64,000 nucleotides of DNA from Flavobacteriales bacterium (GTDB lineage Bacteria; Bacteroidota; Bacteroidia; CAIKAF01). The DNA is taken from the NCBI GenBank assembly GCA_022402535.1, contig JAKRSD010000023.1:30741-94740 (forward strand), written 5' to 3'. Shown one piece after another: positions 11,290-47,843 of this stretch; within the stretch, counting starts at the first letter, position 1, and the number at the start of each line of letters is the position of its first letter. The notes beneath the pieces are model-generated. The model had not been told where the DNA came from and did no database searches. It saw only the letters and a program-made list of their open reading frames with translations. The position numbers and the translations under genes were made by a program.

Positions 11290-12504
11290 ATGGAACAAAA
11301 TTTCATTCTGCTGGCCATTCCCGTTTTCTTTTTATCCATCGGCATCGAACTTTGGTATTCGCGCAAAAAAGGGGCACGTTGGTATAACTTTGAAGACACC
11401 ATTACCAATCTGAATCTGGGTATCGGCAGTCAGGCAGTGGGGATAATGACCAAACTGTTGCTCGTGGGTTCGTACCATTGGGTATATGAAAACGGACGTC
11501 TGTTCGACTTACCCCAAAACCATTGGCTGGTGTGGATTGCAGCCCTGCTGCTTTTTGATTATATCTACTACTGGGCTCATCGTCTGGGACACGAGTGGAA
11601 TTATATGTGGGGTGCTCATATTGTGCATCATCAGAGTACGGAGTTTAATCTTTCGGTGGCGCTGCGCCAGAGTTGGTTTCATAACCTGATTTCGTTTTTT
11701 ATGTTTCTGCCCATGGCACTGTTGGGTTTTCATACTTATGTGCTGGTTGGCGTGGCGGCATTCACCACCTTATATCAATATTGGATTCACACACGGGCCA
11801 TCAAAAAACTGCCTTGGATTTTTGAATATGTGCTGAACACGCCTTCGCACCACAGGGTTCACCATGCCACCAATGCCCACTATATCGACAAAAATTATGC
11901 GGCCACTTTCATTATCTGGGACAGGCTGCACAACACCTTTATGGAAGAAAAAGAAGAACCCGTTTATGGCATCACCAAACCATTTGAATCGCTGAATCCG
12001 ATTTGGGCCAACCTGCATTACTACAAAGAAATGGCCGAAGGCATGAAACGCGAAAAAGGATTCTGGAACAAACTGGCTTTGTGTTTCCGCGGTCCCGAAT
12101 ACCTGGGGAAACTGCTGAATGAACCCATTCCTGAACCCAAACCTGCGGTGCAGACGGCACTTCCCGTGAAGTTATATGTGCTGATTCAGTTTGTGATTCT
12201 TTCTGCCGGACTGGTAAAATACCTCATGCATTTTGAAGAACTGAGCACGTTTTATAAAATCTCGGGCTTTGGACTTATTATCGCCACCACCCATATCTGC
12301 GCCGGATTGTTGGAAAACAAACGCGCTGCCATCGTAACCGAAGTACTGCGTATAACGGCAGCCTTGCTGGTGTTGAACTCGCTGTATTATTTTAATTATG
12401 CCGAGTGGTTTGCCATTATGCTTACCGGTTCCTTGGTCATTACGGCTATTTCGGCGGTTTGGCTGGCATTCAATGTGAAAACGATACGCGTAAACGCCCG
12501 TTAA
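11290..12504 (+). CDS. Sterol desaturase/fatty-acid hydroxylase-family membrane protein with extra C-terminal TM domain
   Basis: Histidine boxes HRLGHEW, HIVHHQS and HHRVHH in the FA_hydroxylase arrangement. About 130-aa hydrophobic C-terminal extension. Confidence 0.8.
   Translation: MEQNFILLAIPVFFLSIGIELWYSRKKGARWYNFEDTITNLNLGIGSQAVGIMTKLLLVGSYHWVYENGRLFDLPQNHWLVWIAALLLFDYIYYWAHRLGHEWNYMWGAHIVHHQSTEFNLSVALRQSWFHNLISFFMFLPMALLGFHTYVLVGVAAFTTLYQYWIHTRAIKKLPWIFEYVLNTPSHHRVHHATNAHYIDKNYAATFIIWDRLHNTFMEEKEEPVYGITKPFESLNPIWANLHYYKEMAEGMKREKGFWNKLALCFRGPEYLGKLLNEPIPEPKPAVQTALPVKLYVLIQFVILSAGLVKYLMHFEELSTFYKISGFGLIIATTHICAGLLENKRAAIVTEVLRITAALLVLNSLYYFNYAEWFAIMLTGSLVITAISAVWLAFNVKTIRVNAR
12448..12504 (+). 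repeat. Left copy of 57-bp direct repeat (3' end of desaturase gene plus stop)
   Basis: GCGGTTTGGCTGGCATTCAATGTGAAAACGATACGCGTAAACGCCCGTTAATTTT is repeated at 13289..13345 with one mismatch (G/A). Confidence 0.9.
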
Positions 12505-13288
12505 TTTTCCCCGATTTATCCATTTTAGCGCTATAAATATAATGGGGACGATAACAAGCTAAGTTGCTCCTGCGTTTGTTAATAGTAAGGGGTAAAAGTA
12601 TAAAATAGTTCATTATCAAGGAATTTTAAATACTTTCCACGTTTACTCATTTATTGCCCTCAAGCCGGGCAGGCTTTTACTTTCTTTATCTCAGTTGATT
12701 TTATTGTTTTTATAGGAATCGATGAGCACTTCGTGGTTGCCTTGCCCAAAGAAAGTAAACAAAGAAAGGGCACTGCTTCCGGAGGCGTTGCGGAGCACCG
12801 GAAGAAAAAGGCTAAAACGCCTCCAATACCGATAGCCATCGGTATTCGCCATTTCTTAACGCCTTTTTCTTCCTACGCTACCGAAAGCAGGGCTTTCCTC
12901 TCCGGACGGCATCGGATTTATTGGCGGGGTTCCCACACGGCGAAAATTCCGTCAAAAGGGTGGGTCAAAAGGCACCACAGGGGCCGGCTTCCCACCCTTT
13001 AGGAATTGAGGCGGATGTGGGTCGCCAAAAATCCGCAGCCTTGATTTACTCCTCTTTGTTTATTTTATTTGGAAGTCGTGAGCTCGGCTTCGCCTCGGTT
13101 TTTTGATTCTTTTTTCATCAAGGAAAAAAGAATGCCCTGCGGCGAGCAGACAAAAGAAAAGCTACTGATTTCACTGAATATTGCACAATGATGTTCTTAG
13201 TTTGACTAATAAAACACTAAAACCATCATAATGCTGGACCTATAATATTTATATGGAAAATGAAAATTAAAGAGATCAAATCAGGAGC

Positions 13289-13345
13289 GGTTTGGCTGGC
13301 ATTCAATGTGAAAACGATACGCGTAAACGCCCATTAATTTTTGCG
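13289..13345 (+). repeat. Right copy of 57-bp direct repeat
   Basis: Near-identical copy of 12448..12504, read directly from the sequence. It overlaps the stop codon of the convergent gene 13334..14011. Confidence 0.9.
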
Positions 13346-23830: not shown

Positions 23831-23866
23831 GAAAAGGCTGCCCAATCGGGTGGCCTTTTTTTGTGG
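23831..23866 (+). terminator. Rho-independent terminator (AGGCUGCCC-AAUC-GGGUGGCCU plus U-run), copy 1 of 3
   Basis: 9-bp stem containing two G-U wobble pairs, formable only in plus-strand RNA, followed by TTTTTTT. Directly after the hppA stop. Confidence 0.7.
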
Positions 23867-25449: not shown

Positions 25450-25486
25450 TGTAAAAGGCTGCCAAAACGGGTGGCCTTTTTGTTTT
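25450..25486 (+). terminator. Rho-independent terminator, copy 2 of 3 (variant loop)
   Basis: AAAAGGCTGCCAAAACGGGTGGCCTTTTTGTTTTTT. Same stem as 23831..23866. Confidence 0.65.
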
Positions 25487-25597
25487 TTACATGACTAATA
25501 CTATCAAATATTTGACATTTTCCAGAGTTACAGACTGCTCGAAATCTATATTTAAAAATCGTAAATTCGCAGAAGTTTAATGAACTGAAACATCATT

Positions 25598-25761: not shown

Positions 25762-25798
25762 TAGAAAAGGCTGCCCAATCGGGTGGCCTTTTTGTTTT
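25762..25798 (+). terminator. Rho-independent terminator, copy 3 of 3
   Basis: AAAAGGCTGCCCAATCGGGTGGCCTTTTTGTTTTT, identical stem-loop to copy 1. Confidence 0.65.
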
Positions 25799-25803
25799 TA
25801 GTA

Positions 25804-27542: not shown

Positions 27543-27578
27543 ATGTGCAAATTAGATGGACAAAGTAAGAATTATTAT

Positions 27579-27615
27579 AGTATTTGGTATTGAGTATTAA
27601 GTATTGAGTATTGAG
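27579..27615 (-). repeat. Inverted array of about 5 AGTATYR heptamers (reverse complement of the CAATACT family)
   Basis: AGTATTTGGTATTGAGTATTAAGTATTGAGTATTGAG is the reverse complement of the heptamers in 28201..28299 and 14992..15012. Confidence 0.8.
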
Positions 27616-27697
27616 ACTATGTGACTGAAGTTAACCATTTCTTGAAAAACAAAATCAACCCAAAAAACCTAAGAACATAAAAACATTCAAACAAATA

Positions 27698-27887
27698 CCT
27701 GCCTATCCCCTATTGCCTATTCCCTTTTGCCTATTGCCTATTCCCTTTTGCCTATTCCCTTTTGCCTATTGCCTATTCCCTATTGCCTATTCCCTTTTGC
27801 CTATTCCCTTTTGCCTATTGCCTATTGCCTATTCCCTTTTGCCTATTGCCTATTGCCTATTCCCCATTGCCTTCCCCTATTGCCTAT
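27698..27887 (+). repeat. Tandem heptamer array of about 27 units alternating TGCCTAT and TCCCTTT
   Basis: Direct reading: TGCCTATTCCCTTTTGCCTATTGCCTATTCCCTTT... for about 190 bp. The ORF-track proteins MPIPFCLLPIPF... are translations of this repeat. Confidence 0.9.
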
Positions 27888-27918
27888 ATTTTTTTACATT
27901 TACGGCAAACGAAGATTC

Positions 27919-28161
27919 ATGCGCATCATTGCAACCATACCGCACCCCAAGGTGAAAATTTCGGTCTTTCAGATGAATAATAAATACCTGCTGAAAATGG
28001 AAGCCGGGCCTTACGAGCAGACCTATAAAATTTACGAAGATGAAATCCAATCCATGGAGCAGCTGCAAGCCCTGTGCAACGAAGATTTTATGAATACTGT
28101 CATCAAACGATTTGAAGCTATGCACAGTGATTTTGAATCCAGCCTGAAACAAATAGTTTAA
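27919..28161 (+). CDS. Small hypothetical protein (80 aa; MRIIATIPHPKVKISVFQMNNKYLLKMEAGPYEQ...)
   Basis: ATG-initiated non-repetitive portion of ORF 27727..28161, located between the two heptamer arrays. Confidence 0.4.
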   Translation: MRIIATIPHPKVKISVFQMNNKYLLKMEAGPYEQTYKIYEDEIQSMEQLQALCNEDFMNTVIKRFEAMHSDFESSLKQIV

Positions 28162-28200
28162 TTTGGCAATTTGAAAATTTGAAAATGATAAAATTGTCTT

Positions 28201-28299
28201 GATACTTGATACTCAATACTTGATACTATTTCCTGATACTCAATACCAAATACTCAATACTTTTTTCCTGATACTTGATACTCAATACTTGATACTATT
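28201..28299 (+). repeat. Tandem array of about 14 YRATACT heptamers (TGATACT/CAATACT) abutting the thiolase start codon
   Basis: TGATACTTGATACTCAATACTTGATACTATTTCCTGATACTCAATACCAAATACTCAATACTTTTTTCCTGATACTTGATACTCAATACTTGATACT, ending 3 nt before the ATG at 28303. Confidence 0.9.
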
Positions 28300-28302
28300 C
28301 AT

Positions 28303-29515: not shown

Positions 29516-29650
29516 ACAAGGATGAAAGAACAAAGATTAAGGACTACGTCTGTTTTTCATCCTTGTCCTTTGATCAAAAAATAGATAAATAGAGTAGAAA
29601 CCGGAGTATCAGGAAAAGAATCTTTCATCCTTGTTCCTTGCTCCTTAATC
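29516..29650. repeat. Inverted-repeat/hairpin-rich intergenic element between the thiolase and dehydrogenase genes (AAGGATGAAAGA motif x3)
   Basis: ACAAGGATGAAAGA (29516..29529) pairs with TTTCATCCTTGT (29557..29568) and with TCTTTCATCCTTGT (29619..29632). GATTAAGGAC (29535..29544) pairs with CTCCTTAATC (29641..29650). Confidence 0.6.
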
Positions 29651-32802: not shown

Positions 32803-33207
32803 TCACTTTTCCTGATTAGGTACAATACTAACATTTAACAAATCAGGAATAAATTCAACCATTAAACTAACCAAAGAAGGGTTAATTGAAATAATTAAAT
32901 TATTATCCTCTTTCTCTTTATCAAAGCGATTAAGAGAAATTCCAAAAAAATCAAATTTATCACCATAGAATTGCACGTTTGAATCTCCGTTTTTTTTGTA
33001 ACATTCATCAAAAAAGTCTTTCAAAAATTTATTAGCTTGGTTTTGCTTTCCCAATCCTAAATTCATACAATATAATAGGTAAATAGCCATAGCTTTTGTT
33101 TTATTGCCATGATTGCTTCCAATAAACTTATCTAATTTTATTTCTGCCGTATGAAATTCTTTCTTTTTTATTAGTTCAACAATTTCATTAAAGTCCTCTT
33201 TTTTCAT
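32803..33207 (-). CDS. Hypothetical small cytoplasmic protein (AT-rich island; 134 aa)
   Basis: ORF 32803..33240 trimmed to MKKEDFNEIV. AT-rich. No signal peptide. Confidence 0.4.
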   Translation of the reverse strand: MKKEDFNEIVELIKKKEFHTAEIKLDKFIGSNHGNKTKAMAIYLLYCMNLGLGKQNQANKFLKDFFDECYKKNGDSNVQFYGDKFDFFGISLNRFDKEKEDNNLIISINPSLVSLMVEFIPDLLNVSIVPNQEK

Positions 33208-33294
33208 TTTGTTTTTTCTTTCAAATGTAAATAAAAACAAAAAATCAACGCTATTAAGAATTAATAAAAGCGTAGCGCAAATTGGCTTTCCATT

Positions 33295-33500
33295 ATCCCG
33301 TCCCTAAAGGGACTTCACCGTTTTATCATTCCGGTTTCTACCAATATGTCATTCCTACTGAATGAATGCTAAATCCATTCAAACCCAAACGATTCTACCC
33401 AATAACATGGCGCACATAATGCCCTGTCCCGTCAGGGACAAAATACGGTAGAAACCATTTCCATTCCCAAAACCAAGTGCCTTTAGGTACGCGATGTGTG
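33295..33500 (+). mobile_element. MITE-like repeat copy 1 (about 205 bp, imperfect terminal inverted repeats, three internal hairpins)
   Basis: Starts CCGTCCCTAAAGGGAC and ends GTGCCTTTAGGTACGC (imperfect TIR). Internal palindromes CATTCCTACTGAATG and TGTCCCGTCAGGGACA. Closely matches 38183..38386. Confidence 0.7.
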
Positions 33501-34418
33501 CAATCTTATCATGTGATTTAATATCTCAACCCTATTGGAACTTCTCCAGTAGCATTTTTGATTTTTCGATACGGCTTATATTAGCCCCGATAAATTAATC
33601 CGTTGCCCGATAAACAAGGGAATACAGCATGGACGTTTGGAAGAAAGTAGAATCCAATTTTTAATAGTATTTGATGTGCCGTTTGTAATCGGCATGATGT
33701 GATTCGTGAATTACCTGATTTCGGGCGGGTAAGGAAAGATTGCCGAATTTTAGTACTGAATTGCGCGTTTGACCGAAAAATTCTCAAGGCTATTCCAAAC
33801 AAAAAACAAAGCATTGAATAAAATGAACGCGATTTTTTATAGAGCTTTCATGTTCGATAAATTTTTAAAGACAAAAAACTATGTAAGGTCGAATTCCTAA
33901 TTTAATGTTTAGCTAAAAAACAGGCCTTATCAATATCTTTTTTATCGAAAGAGATGCAACCTTCGTAAGTAATTATCCAAAAAAGTTTATATTGCTCAAG
34001 CCTTACACTATTAACAAATCCGTTAAAATTCAGTTCCGATGGGGTGAACCGAGCTCCGGCTTTATCGACTTCCACTGTGAAAATCGGGTTTATCATTCGA
34101 GATTTATCAAACGGAAAATGAAATTCTTCAAAAAAGAACGCTTTGATTTCCAATTTCTTTTCCAGAAATTAAAATAATAATCCCCAATTTTTTTCAAAGT
34201 TTCTGAAAATCCTATTGCCTTTCCTGTTCCTCCTTATAGGGCTAACCATTCAACATTTTGTTGGAATTTCATTAGTTAATTATACTGCAGTTTTTGATTA
34301 ATCAAACATAAAAACCAGCATCATAGACCAAAAGCAGAGAATAGACAAAATGAATATTCGAAAATGTTTAAAAAATAAAAATCATCAGATTGTATTCTTA
34401 TGATTTATTTACAGGTTC

Positions 34419-34946
34419 TCATTTCACATTACTCACCGCCGCATTCAGCTTATCTGCAAGCTCCTGAGCTTTCTGAAAATCATCGTATTTAAACGTAAAA
34501 ACCACGTAAGTCCTGTTATTATCCTCCATAAGCTCTCCTCTATCCGTCAATATTTTGTAATTAATATGACTGTCATTGCCCGTCCACTTTAAATACGCTT
34601 CTCCATCTGAATAATTTTTAACTACCTTAAAATTTGGCGCTACAGGTTTAGATTTATCTAAGGGTATCTGAATCATTTCGTATTCCGTAACCTGATTATT
34701 ATATTGATTTACGCGGTACGCATATACCAAAAATTCTTTTTTGACTTTATCTTCATAATATCCGATTTTACAACCATATTGCCTTACGGTATACCAAATA
34801 CCATTGGCAGGAATGTAATAATTATATTTAGGTTTAGCCACCGGAGCGGGCTTTTCCACTTCCTCCTGAACAGGTTGTTCAAACAGTTGTGCTCTTAATC
34901 CGCCTAGCGTAAAGAGCGCGATTAACAATAAACCGATTTTTTTCAT
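34419..34946 (-). CDS. Secreted small protein, paralog family A (175 aa)
   Basis: Signal peptide (MKKIGLLLIALFTLGGLRAQ). Shares a FLVYAYRV...IQIPL..KPVAP core and a C-terminal A.ELA.KLNA helix with 35650..36120 and 34982..35653. Confidence 0.6.
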   Translation of the reverse strand: MKKIGLLLIALFTLGGLRAQLFEQPVQEEVEKPAPVAKPKYNYYIPANGIWYTVRQYGCKIGYYEDKVKKEFLVYAYRVNQYNNQVTEYEMIQIPLDKSKPVAPNFKVVKNYSDGEAYLKWTGNDSHINYKILTDRGELMEDNNRTYVVFTFKYDDFQKAQELADKLNAAVSNVK

Positions 34947-34981
34947 GGTAAAATTTGACTATGTTTTATAAATTTTAGGCA

Positions 34982-35653
34982 CTATTTGGTCAATCCGAGT
35001 CGCATATTCAATTCGTTTGCAAGCCATTTTGCCGCATCCGGTTGAAGCGGAAGACTTACCAGCTCTTTAAAATATCCATTGGTGCTGCTTATGTTGTCAT
35101 AGTATTTTTTTGTTCTGCTCTCTTCAACCCAATTTTTATCATAGGCTTTCCAGGGCATCTCACTCAAATCAGCTTTGGGGATAACATTTACTTGAAAAAC
35201 TTTACCGCATTTGGTATGGTAGGGATCCGTATATATGTTTGCATACTCTTTTTCCCAGGGTTTGCCGTGATGGTAATACTCTTTCGTGATGAATTTAGGA
35301 ATGACACCGGAGCGTTTACAATCTTCAAAATCATCAGCAAACAGAAGGTATAATGTTAAATATTCAGGATCACCCATTTCATTTGATGCGGTAATTTTAT
35401 ATCGCACTACATATAACGAACAGGCTTTCGTTTTCTCATCCCACTTGTAATACAGCACATCAGCGTTTTCTTCGAAAAATTTTGATAAAAGCGCGCCTTT
35501 CCAATCGGTTAACTGCACAGCACCTGCAGGAATTTCCACTCCGTCAAAATTTGTTATAGCTTGTTTTGTTTTCGTTGGCACAAAATTTTGGCCGCTTACA
35601 TATACTGAAATCAAACTGAGTATGACGAAAGTAATTGCTTTATACCTTTTCAT
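34982..35653 (-). CDS. Secreted small protein, paralog family A (223 aa)
   Basis: Signal peptide (MKRYKAITFVILSLISVYVSGQ). LYVVRYKI core and an AKWLANELNMRLG C-terminus related to the two neighbours. Confidence 0.6.
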   Translation of the reverse strand: MKRYKAITFVILSLISVYVSGQNFVPTKTKQAITNFDGVEIPAGAVQLTDWKGALLSKFFEENADVLYYKWDEKTKACSLYVVRYKITASNEMGDPEYLTLYLLFADDFEDCKRSGVIPKFITKEYYHHGKPWEKEYANIYTDPYHTKCGKVFQVNVIPKADLSEMPWKAYDKNWVEESRTKKYYDNISSTNGYFKELVSLPLQPDAAKWLANELNMRLGLTK

Positions 35654-36120
35654 TTTTTGAATTTTGCATTAAGTTCATTTTTTAACCACTCGGCTTTTTC
35701 ATGCGAGCTGATGATTACATCCAAATCGCTTGAATTGTCACATTCCAGTGCGGTAGCCTCTTTATCTGCTTCACACTCCACGATGAAGTCATTTTCCTTT
35801 GCATCGGTCCATTGTACCCGTGATCCGTCAGACTCTTTAAGTGCCGTAAATGCAGGCGCCAGCGGTTTGATTTTGACCACCGGAAGGGTAATTATTTCCG
35901 CTTCCTGAAATGTGTTGTCTTCGTCATCATAGCGAACCAGATAAATCTTGGCTTCTGCTTTGGTGTTGTCGAAATAGTAAAATGCCTTTTCCCACTGATC
36001 TATTCCCTGTCCAAGCTCCACATGGCCGGCAGGAATGGTAAAGGTTTTGAATTTAAGCTCTTGCGCACGGGTAATCAGTGCAAATAACAAGGCTGGAATA
36101 ATTAAAACTATTTTTTTCAT
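35650..36120 (-). CDS. Secreted small protein, paralog family A (156 aa)
   Basis: Trimmed to the MKKIVLIIPALLFALITRAQ signal peptide. IYLVRYDD...ITLPVVKIKPLAPAF core and an AEWLKNELNAKFKK C-terminus. Confidence 0.6.
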   Translation of the reverse strand: MKKIVLIIPALLFALITRAQELKFKTFTIPAGHVELGQGIDQWEKAFYYFDNTKAEAKIYLVRYDDEDNTFQEAEIITLPVVKIKPLAPAFTALKESDGSRVQWTDAKENDFIVECEADKEATALECDNSSDLDVIISSHEKAEWLKNELNAKFKK

Positions 36121-36166
36121 TTTTTTTAATTTTATAGAGTAATACAGAGTATTGCTATTATTCAAA

Positions 36167-36736
36167 CTATTTGATTCCAAACACTTCTTTAAACTTATTT
36201 TCAGCAAACTGAATCCAAATATCATCGCCAATACCTTTATCAGAATACCAGATGAACCTTTTTGGAGTAAACGAATCTATTACACTATAATCTGTTTTAC
36301 CCCCGTTTACCATTTCCTTCTTAGTCTCGGAAATTCCATCTTTCCAATAGTTCAGCATGAATCCATCCTCCGGCAGCTCCACTTTGATGAAGGACCGCTT
36401 ACCCGGATAATACTATTCTAAACGGGTGCTTTTGAAACGCTCACTTTTAGCCAAAGCATCCGAAATTTTAATTTCATAACCGCTACCCAGTTCAGCAGAG
36501 TTCATTATAAAAAATACATGATTATTTGCCGCATCTTTCCAATACCACAATGAATTTTTATGGGGCGTATTGGAAAAACTGGAAATTCCCATTAATTCGC
36601 CTGTTGCATATTTAGCGCCCTCTGCGTTGTGCGGTATGATTAATTTGCCGTATTTGTATATCGGCGTCTGGGCAATTGCTGTTACACAAACACTCAGGGT
36701 TAGTAGTATTAAAATAAGCGTTTGTCTGTTTTTCAT
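36167..36736 (-). pseudogene. Nonsense-interrupted paralog of 36849..37412 (family B): in-frame TAG at complement of 36413..36415
   Basis: ORF 36413..36736 (signal peptide plus N-terminal half) and ORF 36167..36382 (C-terminal half) are in the same frame. The intervening read-through gives FKSTRLE*YYPGKRSFIKVELPEDGFML, against FKSTKIEIDKYSKAIEVILPENGFIL in the intact paralog. Confidence 0.7.
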
Positions 36737-36848
36737 AAAATAGTTGATGTTATGTTTGGTAAAAAACCGATTCCTGAATAGAATCCTTTACAATAGCCGA
36801 AATAAAATTCTTTCCTAAAATGAATTGACAGCGGAATGCTTAGAATTT

Positions 36849-37412
36849 CTAATTCAACCCAAAAACCGCTTTTACCTTTTTCTCAACAAACTGAAGCCAT
36901 TCCATTTCTTTTCCCTCTTTGTATTCCGTATTCCAGTAAAATTTATTGGGAGTAGAGGTACCTCGATGATTCAGGCCATAATCTATAAAGTTAATTTTGC
37001 TTTGCGCTTCCGAATATCCTGACTCATAAAATTGGGTGAGAATGAATCCATTTTCTGGTAAGATAACTTCAATGGCTTTTGAATATTTATCAATTTCAAT
37101 TTTAGTGGATTTAAATGGAGCACTTTTTGCCAATGCGTCTGAAATTTTTGCCTGATATGCGCTTCCGTTAGCTGAACTTAAAACACAAAATATATGATTT
37201 CCCGAAGCATCTTTCCAATACCAGAATGTGTTTCTCAAAGGCTTGTTTTCGTCGCTCGAAAGACCCAACAATTTACCATTGGCATCTCGCGGCCCTTCGG
37301 CATTATGTGGTATAGTCAGTTGCCCTTTCTGGAAAATGGGTGTTTGCGCTAAAACTAATTTACCTGTAAATAAAGTAAAACAGGAAACAGCTATAATCAT
37401 TAGTTTATTCAT
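36849..37412 (-). CDS. Secreted small protein, paralog family B (187 aa)
   Basis: Signal peptide (MNKLMIIAVSCFTLFTGKLVLAQ). QTPI..G.L.IPHNAEG...WYWKDA..NH.F core shared with 36413..36736. Confidence 0.6.
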   Translation of the reverse strand: MNKLMIIAVSCFTLFTGKLVLAQTPIFQKGQLTIPHNAEGPRDANGKLLGLSSDENKPLRNTFWYWKDASGNHIFCVLSSANGSAYQAKISDALAKSAPFKSTKIEIDKYSKAIEVILPENGFILTQFYESGYSEAQSKINFIDYGLNHRGTSTPNKFYWNTEYKEGKEMEWLQFVEKKVKAVFGLN

Positions 37413-37548
37413 GATAATGTGGATTTTTTACATTGATTAATCAATCGGTTGACTAACTTTTTTATTATGTTTATATATTATGAAAAATACAATTTTTATA
37501 AGAGCAGGAATTAACTATTAACCCCCGCTCTTTAGGTATTAACACAGT

Positions 37549-37827
37549 TTACGGTAAATTAATTTCAGGTTCGATTTGAAGAAATGATCCCATGATTATT
37601 TGTTTTCCAATGCATTGAGTTTGGAAAGTAAGACCTGCTTCGCGGTTTTGAGAAACAGAATTCCCAGCGTTTATTAATCCAGAGGCGACAATCTCTTTTC
37701 CATTTAAATATCTACAATTTAACGTCTTGAATTTGTCGTTTTTTATTGGAAAAGCTACTATCTGTGCCTTCAGGGTGATGCACAAACCTAATGCTGGAAG
37801 TAGAGTAATTATAATAACTCTTTTCAT
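37549..37827 (-). CDS. Small secreted hypothetical protein (92 aa)
   Basis: ORF trimmed to MKRVIIITLLPALGLCITLKAQ signal peptide. AT-rich island. Confidence 0.4.
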   Translation of the reverse strand: MKRVIIITLLPALGLCITLKAQIVAFPIKNDKFKTLNCRYLNGKEIVASGLINAGNSVSQNREAGLTFQTQCIGKQIIMGSFLQIEPEINLP

Positions 37828-37962
37828 GGTTATATTGAAATGACAATGCAAACTTACATTTTGAAAAAAAGGATTAGGATTGTGTTTGCATGAACAGAAG
37901 AGTTTATTTCACGAAAAGAGCAAAAATCTTCTTAAACAATTAAATCTGGTTTTATTAAATTA

Positions 37963-38150
37963 AAGCTTACAAAGCTTGTATTTGAGGTCGGAGCGGGTTG
38001 ATTGTCAGAAACTGGTATCACAATTTAGAGTTCGTATGTATTGCATACAAGTAATTCAGGTTTGGCTACCGTTTCTTCGAGATACTCGCCAAATAAATCG
38101 GAATGTTTTAAACCACTTTTTACCTGTTGATTATGGTCGCTCCTTATTTT
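37963..38150 (-). pseudogene. Fragment homologous to the 3' part of gene 39667..39987
   Basis: GCTTGTATTTGAGGTCGGAGCGGGTTGATTG...TCGCCAAATAAATCGGAATG...ATCGCTCC aligns with 39700..39880 (GCCTGTATTTGTCTGCGAAGCGGGTTAATTG...CTCCAAATAAATCGGAATG...ATCGCTCC). Confidence 0.5.
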
Positions 38151-38182
38151 AGACCTAAACTTATCATTACGTTGTCAATATC

Positions 38183-38386
38183 TCATCCCTAAAGGGACTT
38201 CCCCATTTTTTTATTCCGGTTTCTACCTATATGTCATTCCTACGGAATGAATGCGAAACCCTTCAAATCAAAACGATTGTACTACATCAAACTACGTAGC
38301 CACATGCCCTGTCCCGTCAGGGACAACCTATCGGTAGAAAATGCCACTTCCTCCAAATCAAGTGCCTTTAGGTACGCAATGGGTGT
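38183..38386 (+). mobile_element. MITE-like repeat copy 2
   Basis: Near-identical to 33295..33500 with small indels. Direct orientation. Confidence 0.7.
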
Positions 38387-38410
38387 AAATCATATTATGT
38401 GTCTTCAATA

Positions 38411-38476
38411 TCCCGTCCCTAAAGGGATTACTATTCCAGGTTCTACCATAGCTCATTCCTACGGAATGAGAGAGAG
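38411..38476 (+). mobile_element. Partial third MITE-like copy (5' end only)
   Basis: ATCCCGTCCCTAAAGGGATTACTATTCCAGGTTCTACCATAGCTCATTCCTACGGAATGAGAGAG matches the first about 65 bp of the element. Confidence 0.55.
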
Positions 38477-38627
38477 ACATATACCCAAGCCAAACCCATC
38501 TACCGGAATATTTAGTATTAATTCTTCCATCATACCGGAATATTTCATAGTTTTGAAACATGTAACTTCGTGTTGGTCATCAGCCCTTTATGATATTCAA
38601 TCCTTTTACTCAATAACAATTCTTTCC

Positions 38628-39554
38628 ATGAAAAAAGCCTTTATTTTTCTCAATCTGATTTTTCTATCCCTTGGCGCAATGACCCAGGCTCCTCAAAAAA
38701 TGAGTTTTCAGGCAGTTATCCGAAGTGCATCCGGTCAGTTGGTGATTAACGCCCAGGTAGGCATGCGTATCAGTATTTTGCAGGGTTCTGCATCGGGTAC
38801 ACCCACTTACGTGGAAACCCAAACGGCCCAAACTAACGGTAATGGCCTGATAAGTTTGGAAGTAGGCAGCGGAAATGCAGTAAGCGGCAGTTTTCAAAAT
38901 ATCAACTGGAGCTCGGGTCCGTATTTTATAAAAACAGAAACTGACCCCGCAGGCGGAAACAACTATTCCATTTTAGGCACCAGTCAGCTGCTTTCCGTGC
39001 CTTATGCCTTATATGCCGAGAAATTAAGCAGCAATGCGTTTCAATTTTTCTACGCCGACAGAGACGGTGACGGATTTGGAGACCCATTTGGGGCTTATTA
39101 TGGTCCTTCTACCCTAACGGGATATGTGAGCAACAATACCGACTGCAACGATCAGGAAGCTTCTGCATTTCCGGGAGCCACAGAAATATGCGATGGAATA
39201 GACAATAACTGTAACGGTCAGATTGACGAAGGCTTAACGCTGACTACCTATTATTTGGATGCTGACGGTGACAATTTTGGAAACCTAAGCATTTCCATCT
39301 CCACATGCGCGGCTCCCCCATCGGGTTATGTCATTAATGGAGGTGATTGCGACGATAGTAATCCGACGATTTTCCCCGGCGTTTCAGTCGCCTGTCAGGG
39401 CAATAATGTCGGTATCTGTAATCCGGGTACCAAAACCTGTCAAACCAATGGAAATTTCAGCAATTGTGTAGGGCAGGTATTACCGCTTCCTGCGGAAATT
39501 TGCGGAAACGGTATAGACGACGACTGCAATGGTATAGTGGATGACGGATGCTGA
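38628..39554 (+). CDS. Secreted protein with MopE-like putative metal-binding Cys/Asp repeats
   Basis: Trimmed to the MKKAFIFLNLIFLSLGAMTQA signal peptide. C-terminal repeats DxDGDGFGD...CNDxxAxxFPGATExCDGxDNNCNG...DEG are typical of the putative metal-binding motif. The upstream ORF-track extension is a translation of the MITE. Confidence 0.6.
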   Translation: MKKAFIFLNLIFLSLGAMTQAPQKMSFQAVIRSASGQLVINAQVGMRISILQGSASGTPTYVETQTAQTNGNGLISLEVGSGNAVSGSFQNINWSSGPYFIKTETDPAGGNNYSILGTSQLLSVPYALYAEKLSSNAFQFFYADRDGDGFGDPFGAYYGPSTLTGYVSNNTDCNDQEASAFPGATEICDGIDNNCNGQIDEGLTLTTYYLDADGDNFGNLSISISTCAAPPSGYVINGGDCDDSNPTIFPGVSVACQGNNVGICNPGTKTCQTNGNFSNCVGQVLPLPAEICGNGIDDDCNGIVDDGC

Positions 39555-39666: not shown

Positions 39667-39987
39667 TCACAAATAATTTTGTTCAATTACTGCTTTTAGC
39701 GCCTGTATTTGTCTGCGAAGCGGGTTAATTGCAGCAAATTTATAGCCCATTATGGCGGCGGTATGTTTAGATTCCAATAATTCGGGCTTGGGTTCTATTA
39801 CTTCCCGATATTCTCCAAATAAATCGGAATGACGTTTAAAGTGTTGGAGCAGTTTGTTATAATCGCTCCACAGAAACTTCACATCGGCGGCACTGACTCC
39901 TTGAATTAGGGTTTCAGAAGGTATCTGACTTTTTTCAACGGAATTTTCCAATTCATGTAACATGCCTTTCAGCCGCTCTATATCCAT
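39667..39987 (-). CDS. Hypothetical protein (106 aa)
   Basis: Clean ORF. Its 3' portion is duplicated as a fragment at 37963..38150. Confidence 0.5.
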   Translation of the reverse strand: MDIERLKGMLHELENSVEKSQIPSETLIQGVSAADVKFLWSDYNKLLQHFKRHSDLFGEYREVIEPKPELLESKHTAAIMGYKFAAINPLRRQIQALKAVIEQNYL

Positions 39988-46502: not shown

Positions 46503-47843
46503 ATGCGCAACACTGAATTACCTGACGCCATAAAAACAGATGAACGCTTTCATCGCAATTATATCTGGTTTTTATTGATTGCTTTGGCCGCAGGCTCCGA
46601 AGTATTTGCCTTGGCCACGGGGCCGCTTTCTATCTATCCCTATCGGTTTGCCGTAATGTCGGGCATGTTATATTATGCTGCATTACTTTTGAAAAATAAA
46701 GGTCCGGTGAAAATCGATTTTTCATTTGCCCTTCCTGCGCTGATTGTCTTTATGATTGTGTATGGAGGTATCCATTCGTTTTGGGTAGAATATAAATCAG
46801 CTGCCGTGAAAGAACTCGGAAACCTTGTTTTTGGATTTGCATTCGTGTTCAGTTTTCAGCAGGCCTGGAAACAGTTAAAAGAACCCTGGGAATTTTTACA
46901 ACACATTTTTTATTGGCCGTTGGGATTTATTTTGGCATTTAGTTTTTTCGAAATTGCCACCAAAAGTCACTTGCCTTCACCCTATGCCACTGAAATTTTA
47001 ATCACTGACCCTATTCACTTTGTAAGACTTTCCCCTTCTGCCACATTCGGAAATCCAAACCATCTGGGTATCTTTTTAGTTTTGTCTTTTTTCATCCTTT
47101 TTAATCAGATAATTCGTCGGATTCACCTACAAAAAGCCCTGATTTTTTTATTTCTCACGCTAATTGTGTTGTGGTTCACGCTTTCACGGTTCGGACTCAT
47201 GGCCGTTTTCTTGCCGATTTTGTATCTTCCTTTTCACTTTAAACATGAAATTATACGCTCCTTCAAAAATCAAAAAAGAAATTGGCTGGGCCTTGGTTTT
47301 CTGATTTTGGGCACAGGGCTGATTGTAGTGTTTCACCAAGGTTTTACGGGCGGAATGTTTGCCGCTAAAGGTGAAGGTGCCGAAACTCCGGTGGTAGATC
47401 CTATGGCTAAAAGCAGCCGTACGGTGCGAACCAACATGCTCAAAAACGGATGGGAAATAACGAAGGAGTCTAATTTCCTCGGAGTAGGGCCGGGACAATT
47501 CTCCGAATTGATGAAATACGAACCCCAGAAATTCGAAACCTTTGGTTTTACCGATCCCCATTCCGGAGCTATTGAAATCATCAGTCAATATGGGATACTC
47601 AGCATTTTGTTGTGGGCATTCTGGGGTGTGGGGGTACTTTTTATCTGCATAAAAGGACTTAAAACCGAACCGGCATATTGGCTTACTCCCCTATTTATGG
47701 CTATTGCCTTTATACCGGTTTCTGCAGCAAACAGTAGTTTTTTAGCTTCGCCTCTTACTTGGGCCTATGTAGGAATTTTACATATTTTAGTGGCTCAAAA
47801 ATTACCGTTCTCTCCATCACAGGAGGGAAAAACGATTCGGTAA
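46503..47843 (+). CDS. O-antigen ligase/polymerase-family (Wzy/WaaL-like) polytopic membrane protein
   Basis: 446-aa, about 10-12 TM protein with a large periplasmic loop, at the head of a glycosyltransferase cluster. Confidence 0.55.
   Translation: MRNTELPDAIKTDERFHRNYIWFLLIALAAGSEVFALATGPLSIYPYRFAVMSGMLYYAALLLKNKGPVKIDFSFALPALIVFMIVYGGIHSFWVEYKSAAVKELGNLVFGFAFVFSFQQAWKQLKEPWEFLQHIFYWPLGFILAFSFFEIATKSHLPSPYATEILITDPIHFVRLSPSATFGNPNHLGIFLVLSFFILFNQIIRRIHLQKALIFLFLTLIVLWFTLSRFGLMAVFLPILYLPFHFKHEIIRSFKNQKRNWLGLGFLILGTGLIVVFHQGFTGGMFAAKGEGAETPVVDPMAKSSRTVRTNMLKNGWEITKESNFLGVGPGQFSELMKYEPQKFETFGFTDPHSGAIEIISQYGILSILLWAFWGVGVLFICIKGLKTEPAYWLTPLFMAIAFIPVSAANSSFLASPLTWAYVGILHILVAQKLPFSPSQEGKTIR

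Follow-up and report, generated by a model that had tools for sequence, protein, structure and literature searches.

The window analyzed here is a stretch of 64,000 nt (64 kb) from contig JAKRSD010000023.1 of a Flavobacteriales bacterium. It carries two clusters of an approximately 80-nt hairpin repeat, one on each side of a cassette of eight small genes. Five copies of the repeat, referred to below as arms, are present in total, and they belong to a family that extends across the Bacteroidota. The original prediction for this region had seen a MITE-like element (for miniature transposable element with inverted repeats) in two full copies, here A and B, plus a partial one; what it described is these two clusters of arms. 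In related genomes the same arms bracket a gene for an IS200-like Y1 protein, and arms are called RE-type when oriented like the arm downstream of that gene and LE-type when oriented like the arm upstream of it.

Arms in the window

The arms were delimited by a covariance model, R1, whose training set comprised 60 arms of other genomes and none of the window. Run with filters off over both strands of the whole 64 kb, R1 returned exactly five significant arms (E 9e-13 to 2e-5) and nothing further below E 1, the next best match having E 1.5. Window motif searches gave 2–5 matches where 0–0.6 were expected by chance. Two further matches resembling the tag, at 29593 and 47711, do not represent copies, and a pattern match at 46762 lacks R1 support.

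An arm begins with a first hairpin and a stretch of 7–8 nt that has ATRTY at its end. The tag GGTAGAAA comes next, and after some 21–22 variable nt a second hairpin and a GATAT-like motif complete the arm. Hairpin 1 has 5–6 bp, with the form xGTCCC-GTNA-GGGACx, and is followed by the 8-nt consensus nnnATRTY. Read in arm orientation, hairpin 1 in the window is either TGTCCC-GTCA-GGGACA or CATTCC-GTA-GGAATG, and hairpin 2 is either GTGCC-TTTA-GGTAC or GTCCC-TTTA-GGGAC.

The left arm of copy A is RE-type and occupies 33290–33367 on the minus strand (R1 48.0 bits, E 3e-10). On the plus strand it reads as the hairpin GTCCC-TAAA-GGGAC (33300–33313), the tag TTTCTACC (33335–33342), the 8-nt motif AATATGTC and the hairpin ATTCC-TAC-TGAAT (33351–33363). 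A central spacer of 54 nt (33368–33421), 25/56 identical to that of copy B in a gapless register, separates it from the inverted right arm, which is LE-type and lies at 33422–33500 on the plus strand (56.8 bits, E 2e-12). The right arm comprises the hairpin TGTCCC-GTCA-GGGACA (33425–33440), the 7-nt AAAATAC, the tag GGTAGAAA (33447–33454) and the hairpin GTGCC-TTTA-GGTAC (33477–33490). Beyond it, a weak R1 match on the minus strand (33518–33591, 8 bits, E 3.2) is a candidate third arm, probably a decayed counterpart of the last arm of the other cluster, arm C.

Copy B has the same layout. Its RE-type left arm (38175–38252, minus strand; 56.5 bits, E 2e-12) contains the hairpin (A)TCCC-TAAA-GGGA(C) at 38185–38198, the tag TTTCTACC at 38220–38227, the 8-nt motif TATATGTC and the hairpin ATTCC-TAC-GGAAT at 38236–38248. 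The central spacer, again of 54 nt, spans 38253–38306, and the LE-type right arm (38307–38385, plus strand; 58.2 bits, E 9e-13) has the hairpin TGTCCC-GTCA-GGGACA at 38310–38325, the 8-nt motif AACCTATC, the tag GGTAGAAA at 38333–38340 and the hairpin GTGCC-TTTA-GGTAC at 38362–38375. Arm C is RE-type (38405–38471, minus strand; 28.8 bits, E 2e-5), with the hairpin GTCCC-TAAA-GGGAT at 38415–38428, the tag GTTCTACC at 38440–38447 and the hairpin ATTCC-TAC-GGAAT at 38455–38467. This is the presumed partial third copy of the original prediction: a shorter copy is indeed there, but it is a complete arm with an internal spacer 12 nt shorter, and not a truncated one.

The earlier description holds in some respects and needs revision in others. 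The direct repeats at about 33290–33500 and 38175–38385 exist and align in one gapless register with an offset of 4885, but "near-identical" overstates their similarity, the blastn alignment of A with B covering 246 nt at 79.7% identity. Homology between them reaches to about 33530, some 30 nt beyond the right ends first assigned, with AATATCTCAACCCTATTGG aligned to AATATCCCGTCCCTAAAGG. The internal palindromes are real hairpins, but there are four per copy, two in each arm (GTCCC-TAAA-GGGAC, (C)ATTCC-TAC-GGAAT(G), TGTCCC-GTCA-GGGACA and GTGCC-TTTA-GGTAC), and not three. Open reading frame (ORF) 38247 does begin inside copy B, as had been noted, the called gene starting at 38628.

Both clusters are intergenic according to the gene calls, and their arms alternate in orientation, cluster A being RE-LE followed by the decayed RE and cluster B+C being RE-LE-RE. 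When the weak match at 33518–33591 is included among the R1 matches, the two clusters thus share the order minus, plus, minus. Between A and B the hairpins and tags are identical at 14–20 of 15–20 positions and the spacers at about 45–50%, still in gapless register, and the flanks outside the arms are unrelated (11/38 and 11/40 identical). Arm order and spacing are equal, which makes it most likely that a single three-arm cluster was duplicated to give A and B and that they do not stem from independent insertions. After such a duplication the hairpins and tags would have been kept by selection or homogenization, and the spacers would have drifted.

The hairpin GTGCC...GGTAC, which is the gene-proximal hairpin of the upstream-type arm, keeps a G-T mismatch at its third pair at both window positions (33477–33490 and 38362–38375). 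The same imperfect stem occurs in loci of Algoriphagus and termite-gut Bacteroidia (L127 at about 5104, L038 at about 1368, L236 at about 10593 and L238 at about 9951). The mismatch may serve in recognition, in the way of those known from the hairpins of IS608.

The arm family and its Y1 gene

The hairpin-plus-tag module GTCCCGTCAGGGAC-N6-10-GGTAGAA occurs in at least 120 genome contigs. Among the matches listed are Bacteroidales, Flavobacterium, Algoriphagus, Ferruginibacter, Saprospiraceae, Chitinophagaceae, Balneolia and Chlorobium, and the orders with the module include Bacteroidales, Flavobacteriales, Cytophagales and Chitinophagales. The hairpin alone (GTCCCGTCAGGGAC) was found in 105 metagenome contigs, many of them from termite gut. 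A narrow pattern combining the first hairpin with the first tag (CCCTAAAGGG-N5-31-TCCNGNTTCTACC) had no match in 185,579 species genomes, and the plasmid collection gave no DNA match to the window element. None of the fetched loci contains a close relative of the whole 205-bp block; what matches there is the modules alone.

The architecture of the module is conserved. Hairpin and tag stand 8 nt apart in 293 of 327 modules, and a second hairpin follows 22–30 nt past the tag in 183/292 modules, compared with 7% in random control windows. The hairpin is also present at sites selected through the tag: among 125 sites anchored on ATRTYGGTAG, with those matching the search pattern removed, a perfect 5-bp stem terminates precisely 3 nt before that motif in 78, vs. 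1/500 at control offsets. Most stems are xGTCCC/GGGACx, and variants with compensated changes occur (ATCCC/GGGAT, GCCCC/GGGGC and GTGCC/GGCAC). At the sixth stem pair, which lay outside the detection criteria, the 60-arm alignment has UA 21 times, AU 17 times and CG 5 times, a covariation score reached by none of 500 shuffles.

The fetched loci contain the module as single copies, as tandem arrays whose spacers are identical, and as inverted composites of four hairpins. Neighboring arms no more than 300 bp apart form 133 pairs, of which 106 are inverted and 27 are direct, with both arms in the same orientation. The commonest arrangement is LE-RE, plus then minus (69 pairs), whose median gap of 9 nt corresponds to the gene unit without its ORF; gene-less dimers are thus the commonest arrangement in the family. 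The right arm of copy B and arm C make up such a plus-minus dimer, with a gap of 19 nt. The RE-LE arrangement, minus then plus, accounts for 37 pairs. Their gaps have a median of 62 nt; in window copies A and B the corresponding gap is 54 nt.

Tandem amplification of the hairpin and tag, with a period of 49–69 nt and identical spacers, was observed at L140 281–441, L156 7386–7563, L117 3600–3830 and L109 1350–1520, the last of these arrays adjoining the start codon of a Y1 gene. Since their spacers are identical, these are not clustered regularly interspaced short palindromic repeat (CRISPR) arrays, and the window contains no regular array.

A DNA pattern alone had been used to fetch 225 loci, and in 17 of them tblastn detected full-length Y1 genes. 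In 15 of the 225 the Y1 protein is at least 56% identical to the Flavobacterium protein, where about 0.3 would be expected by chance on a rough estimate that assumes a single-copy gene. The reverse test gave the same association: at six loci fetched through the protein, from three Flavobacterium species and three Bacteroidia, arms adjoin the gene in 6/6. The 15 DNA-fetched and six protein-fetched loci make up the 21 loci considered here (a first Y1 motif regular expression had found 3 loci, tblastn 23), and L236–L238 were outside the R1 training set. The original prediction had proposed a search for a cognate IS200/IS605-type enzyme. This was borne out in that the same arms bracket an IS200-like Y1 gene at these 21 related loci, but no TnpB is involved.

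An arm lies within 35 nt of the Y1 gene at 18 of the 21 loci and within 130 nt at all of them. Gene-adjacent arms upstream have the same orientation as the gene. Those downstream are inverted, except at L228 and L032/L041, and overlap the stop codon, with the TAA inside the 8-nt motif. The loops of the two flanking arms are reverse complements, GTNA vs. TNAC. At two further loci, fetched by the hairpin pattern, the Y1 protein is only 41% identical and no arms were detectable (L064 238–684 and L106 1316–1762); these are probably ordinary IS200-type elements matched by chance. In the Cytophagales, a megaplasmid of Bernardetia carries a 60%-identical Y1 gene flanked by arms with the stem AGCT-GCGT-AGCT, in which the motif AATATT-TGTAGAAA is kept, and two places on this plasmid appear to carry the gene-bearing element. 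Because the Bernardetia arms differ in their stem and share the tag, the stem changes with lineage while the tag stays.

The protein itself matches Pfam Y1_Tnp (PF01797) at 1e-30, and it scores 83.4 bits with the NCBIfam model transpos_IS200 (cutoff 55) vs. 32.5 bits with REP_Tyr_transpos (cutoff 80). Its closest solved relatives are the TnpA proteins of ISDra2 and IS608. It is about 150 aa long and carries DH[IV]H, WQ and YI.NQ..HH, in agreement with the signature of "subclass 1.2", in which the Y motif is Y...Q..HH (PMC6006769). In the published survey of Y1 proteins, this subclass has a Bacteroidetes distribution, no repetitive extragenic palindromic (REP) sequences and generally no IS200-type terminal structures, and it is absent from the REP table (Quentin et al., 2018; PMC6006769). 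The Flavobacterium protein and that of a Bacteroidia contig from termite gut share 63% identity. Most Y1 clusters at 90% identity were seen on one to three contigs, and judged from these few contigs per cluster the gene appears to be single-copy. Within Flavobacterium it occupies four different neighborhoods in four species.

Neighboring genes and relatives

The cassette between the two clusters (33902–37851, minus strand; ORFs and gene calls) encodes eight small proteins, most of them with signal peptides, and is context and not part of the repeat. Its 107-aa and 187-aa proteins are paralogs. Between the cassette and copy B lies a 5′-truncated paralogous fragment of a 106-aa gene (37922–38145, minus strand), the full gene being at 39667–39987 on the minus strand (local alignment score 148). 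The fragment stops about 30 bp from the left arm of copy B. Splitting of the 106-aa paralog by copy B was considered and rejected: to the right of arm C the sequence is no match for the absent 5′ portion, with a score of 41 where shuffles average 30.5 and reach at most 52.

The FadB-like protein encoded in the window is identical to MCG9911643.1. A Logan contig that shares the region (L239, SRR15669396_36) starts 1.4 kb upstream of fadB; the window reaches 29.6 kb upstream of it. The relatives compared have FadB proteins 92%, 85% and 81% identical to that of the window, the nearest being 92% identical in amino acids and about 85% in nucleotides. In the closest relatives, L230 and L231, the eight-gene cassette is inverted relative to fadB (L230 15188–18073). 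This inversion, together with the truncated paralog beside copy B, places the arms at rearrangement breakpoints. An approximately 350-bp direct repeat with a small ORF in L230 (12200–12560 and 18090–18400) bounds a beta-lactamase gene plus the cassette and is unrelated to the arms.

Other classes of repeat were examined and set aside. Integron attC sites, considered on account of the small ORFs between the clusters, do not fit, as the cluster pair bounds eight genes and not one, and no integrase domain was found among the called genes. Island att sites at an RNA gene were rejected, there being no tRNA-like or Rfam gene and the partial copy being on the wrong side. Repeats of a diversity-generating retroelement were rejected likewise: the differences between A and B are not adenine-specific, and no reverse-transcriptase domain was present among the genes called near the arms.

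Several other repeats were recorded elsewhere in the window. The intergenic region 27543–28302, between a PrsW-like gene (minus strand) and a thiolase gene (plus strand), contains three heptad-based tandem arrays: AGTATTG repeated five times (27579–27615), TGCCTAT[T/C]-type heptads repeated 27 times (27700–27887) and CTTGATA/ATACTCA repeated 14 times (28198–28296). The first and third arrays are mutually inverted, and the closest relative lacks a counterpart of 27584–27847. Similar hairpins of terminator-like form, AAAAGGCTGCCnAAnCGGGTGGCCTTTTT, are located at three positions, 23832–23866, 25453–25487 and 25765–25799. A 55-nt direct repeat, 98% identical, occurs at 12454–12508 and 13287–13341, 833 nt apart.

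Interpretation and comparison with known systems

The window arms belong to a repeat family, as the R1 matches establish, and it is of the non-autonomous, structured kind that the original prediction had supposed. Because the same repeat brackets a Y1 gene elsewhere in the Bacteroidota, the window element is most likely a gene-less relative of that gene-bearing unit and can be compared with the REP repeats of E. coli. By analogy with known systems, it is probably a repeat resembling REP sequences and bacterial interspersed mosaic elements (BIMEs), non-autonomous and handled in trans by a Y1 enzyme on single-stranded DNA. The mechanism proposed is modeled on the TnpA proteins of IS608 and ISDra2 and on E. 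coli TnpA-REP. A Y1 dimer would recognize the hairpins in single-stranded DNA, for example on the lagging-strand template, and would cut and rejoin at or near the ATRTY/GGTAG tag, at a fixed distance 8 nt 3′ of the hairpin. Such cleavage and rejoining would allow gene-less arms to be copied or moved in trans without target-site duplication (TSD). Clusters would grow by insertion beside existing arms, and arms could serve as breakpoints of rearrangement, represented here by the inverted cassette in relatives and the truncated gene beside copy B. A more general proposal, to which we give roughly even chances, is that subclass-1.2 Y1 proteins are the enzymes of a phylum-wide REPtron-type system with two-hairpin arms and ATRTY-GGTAGAAA 8 nt 3′ of the hairpin. 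In such a system the stems would co-evolve with the protein, the tag would remain fixed, and the window element would be a gene-less product whose arms act as breakpoints.

Several results weigh against the reading as a REP/BIME-like repeat handled by a Y1 enzyme. No Y1 gene was found within the 64-kb window by motif search or tblastn, so that the copies there are gene-less, and the short DNA hairpins are thermodynamically weak, with z of −0.8 to −3 per arm. There are no arms in 80 kb of the nearest relatives, and in the relatives compared no clean empty site or insertion polymorphism was seen, the rearranged region precluding a clean comparison. Only two clusters are present in 64 kb, with equal arm order and exact spacing, and A and B may be one duplicated block and not two transposition events. 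Finally, the high conservation of the Y1 protein and the few contigs per cluster could fit a host function unrelated to mobility.

Two rival explanations build on the last two of these points. A purely local segmental duplication as the source of A and B, tied to the cassette rearrangement and with a sequence no longer or never mobile here, would account for the same three-arm order in gapless register, for the presence of just two clusters in the window and none in 80 kb of relatives, and for the inverted cassette and the truncated paralog beside B. We hold it to be unlikely: the arms belong to a phylum-wide family, and their origin is therefore not local; in addition, hairpins and tags are far better conserved than spacers, which argues for continuing constraint or homogenization and not for a decaying duplicate. 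As the origin of these two particular copies, such a duplication is compatible with a REP/BIME-like repeat. It is improbable that the arms are host-function sites, such as binding sites of a nucleoid or repair protein or signals for replication or recombination, with a domesticated Y1 protein that does not move them. The unusual conservation of Y1, its clusters on one to three contigs, and the conservation of the tag ATRTY-GGTAGAA across orders while stems change speak for such sites, but the four Flavobacterium species with four different Y1 neighborhoods, the preponderance of gene-less dimers resembling deletion derivatives and the existence of tandem amplifications are more typical of mobile or amplifying DNA.

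The remaining rivals take the approximately 200-nt block as the functional unit. A structured RNA had been offered as an alternative in the original prediction; it would be non-coding, either a small RNA or a cis-regulatory leader, with the hairpins acting as RNA. In its favor, the block folds better than shuffles on the plus strand (A, z −5.4; B, z −3.3), its ends pair with each other and so do its two tags, and the G-T mismatch of GTGCC...GGTAC, kept in distant taxa, would be a G-U pair in RNA. The long-range pairing of ends and tags is, however, explained by the inverted layout of the arm pair. The family includes arms of either orientation, tandem arrays whose spacers are identical, and dimers of both the LE-RE and the RE-LE type; inverted arms bracket the gene of a DNA-processing enzyme; and the hairpins are unlike terminators because no T-run follows them. 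No Rfam 15 family was found over the window at the gathering score, nor any match overlapping the arms in 33000–38800 up to E 10, and we accord an RNA little credence. Even harder to sustain is a classical MITE, with terminal inverted repeats (TIRs) used by a DDE transposase encoded elsewhere and insertion with TSDs. The termini are imperfect inverted repeats as had been claimed (13/16 complementary), the block is about 200 bp and AT-rich, and AATATC stands near both ends. Yet what looks like TIRs is a pair of inverted arms with their outer hairpin modules, two of the four modules in each copy, and AATATC is the family's own nnnATRTY motif beside the outer hairpin and not a duplicated target. 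There is no TSD, the flanks beyond the arms being unrelated, and what is conserved across genomes is the 80-nt arm in place of the block of 205 bp. Among the called genes near the arms neither a transposase nor an integrase domain was detected, and the sole gene associated with the family is that of the Y1 HUH protein.

If a REP/BIME-like repeat is the correct reading, a Y1 family with thousands of members gains a substrate defined to 80 nt, together with a conserved motif that is a candidate for cleavage or guidance. The arms would also flag likely hot spots of rearrangement in Bacteroidota genomes and metagenome-assembled genomes. Spurious ORF starts that run through arms, such as that of ORF 38247, are a source of annotation error.

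REP/RAYT systems, the latter being REP-associated tyrosine transposases, are known mainly from Proteobacteria and are based on class-2 RAYT enzymes. The REP/BIME/REPIN-RAYT REPtrons of E. coli, Pseudomonas and Stenotrophomonas share with the arms the form of short intergenic hairpin repeats clustered in alternating orientation, inverted copies of which flank a small Y1 HUH gene (here in related genomes, at 21/21 loci). In both, gene-less inverted dimers are commonest, there is no TSD, and a short unpaired tag contains GTAG. They differ in that the GT[AG]G of REP sequences is located directly at the 5′ foot of the hairpin, whereas here GGTAG is 8 nt 3′ and GTAG is never found 5′ of the stem. 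Here there are also two hairpins per arm with stems of only 5–6 bp, and the cognate gene is of class 1 (IS200-like, subclass 1.2) and not a class-2 TnpA-REP/RAYT.

With the IS200/IS605 insertion sequences (IS), represented by IS608 and ISDra2, the arms have in common a Y1 HUH transposase fold, subterminal hairpins in place of TIRs and the lack of a TSD. In IS608 the cleavage site is about 10 nt 3′ of the right-end hairpin, a position that resembles that of the tag in the arms. In contrast, the ends of IS608-type elements are on one strand and non-inverted, whereas the flanks here are inverted copies. Active IS typically have several identical copies per genome, and the Y1 clusters may differ in this, most having been seen on one to three contigs; in addition, no tnpB is present and many arms are gene-less.

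Hairpin repeats have been described in the same phylum. The REPs of subclass 2.6 RAYTs of Bacteroidetes are atypical, e.g., GCTAGCGCGAGCGTCCCGCTCGTG (PMC6006769), and the CGTC REPs of Bacteroidetes/Chlorobi have 8–9-bp stems starting with AT pairs and a terminal CGTC tag (PMC3733652). Both have been described as atypical or without a dedicated transposase (PMC6006769; PMC3733652), and neither matches the hairpin-N8-GGTAGAAA arm. No description of the arm motif or of its association with Y1 was found in the full-text literature on REP/RAYT in Bacteroidota, of which coverage was incomplete. Subclass 1.2 itself has the same protein signature and the same Bacteroidetes distribution; the survey lists no REP for it (PMC6006769), whereas arms were found here at 21/21 loci. 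If the proposed reading is true, the Bacteroidota would have a parallel REP-type system, its enzyme being IS200-like, of class 1 and without cognate repeats according to the reference survey.

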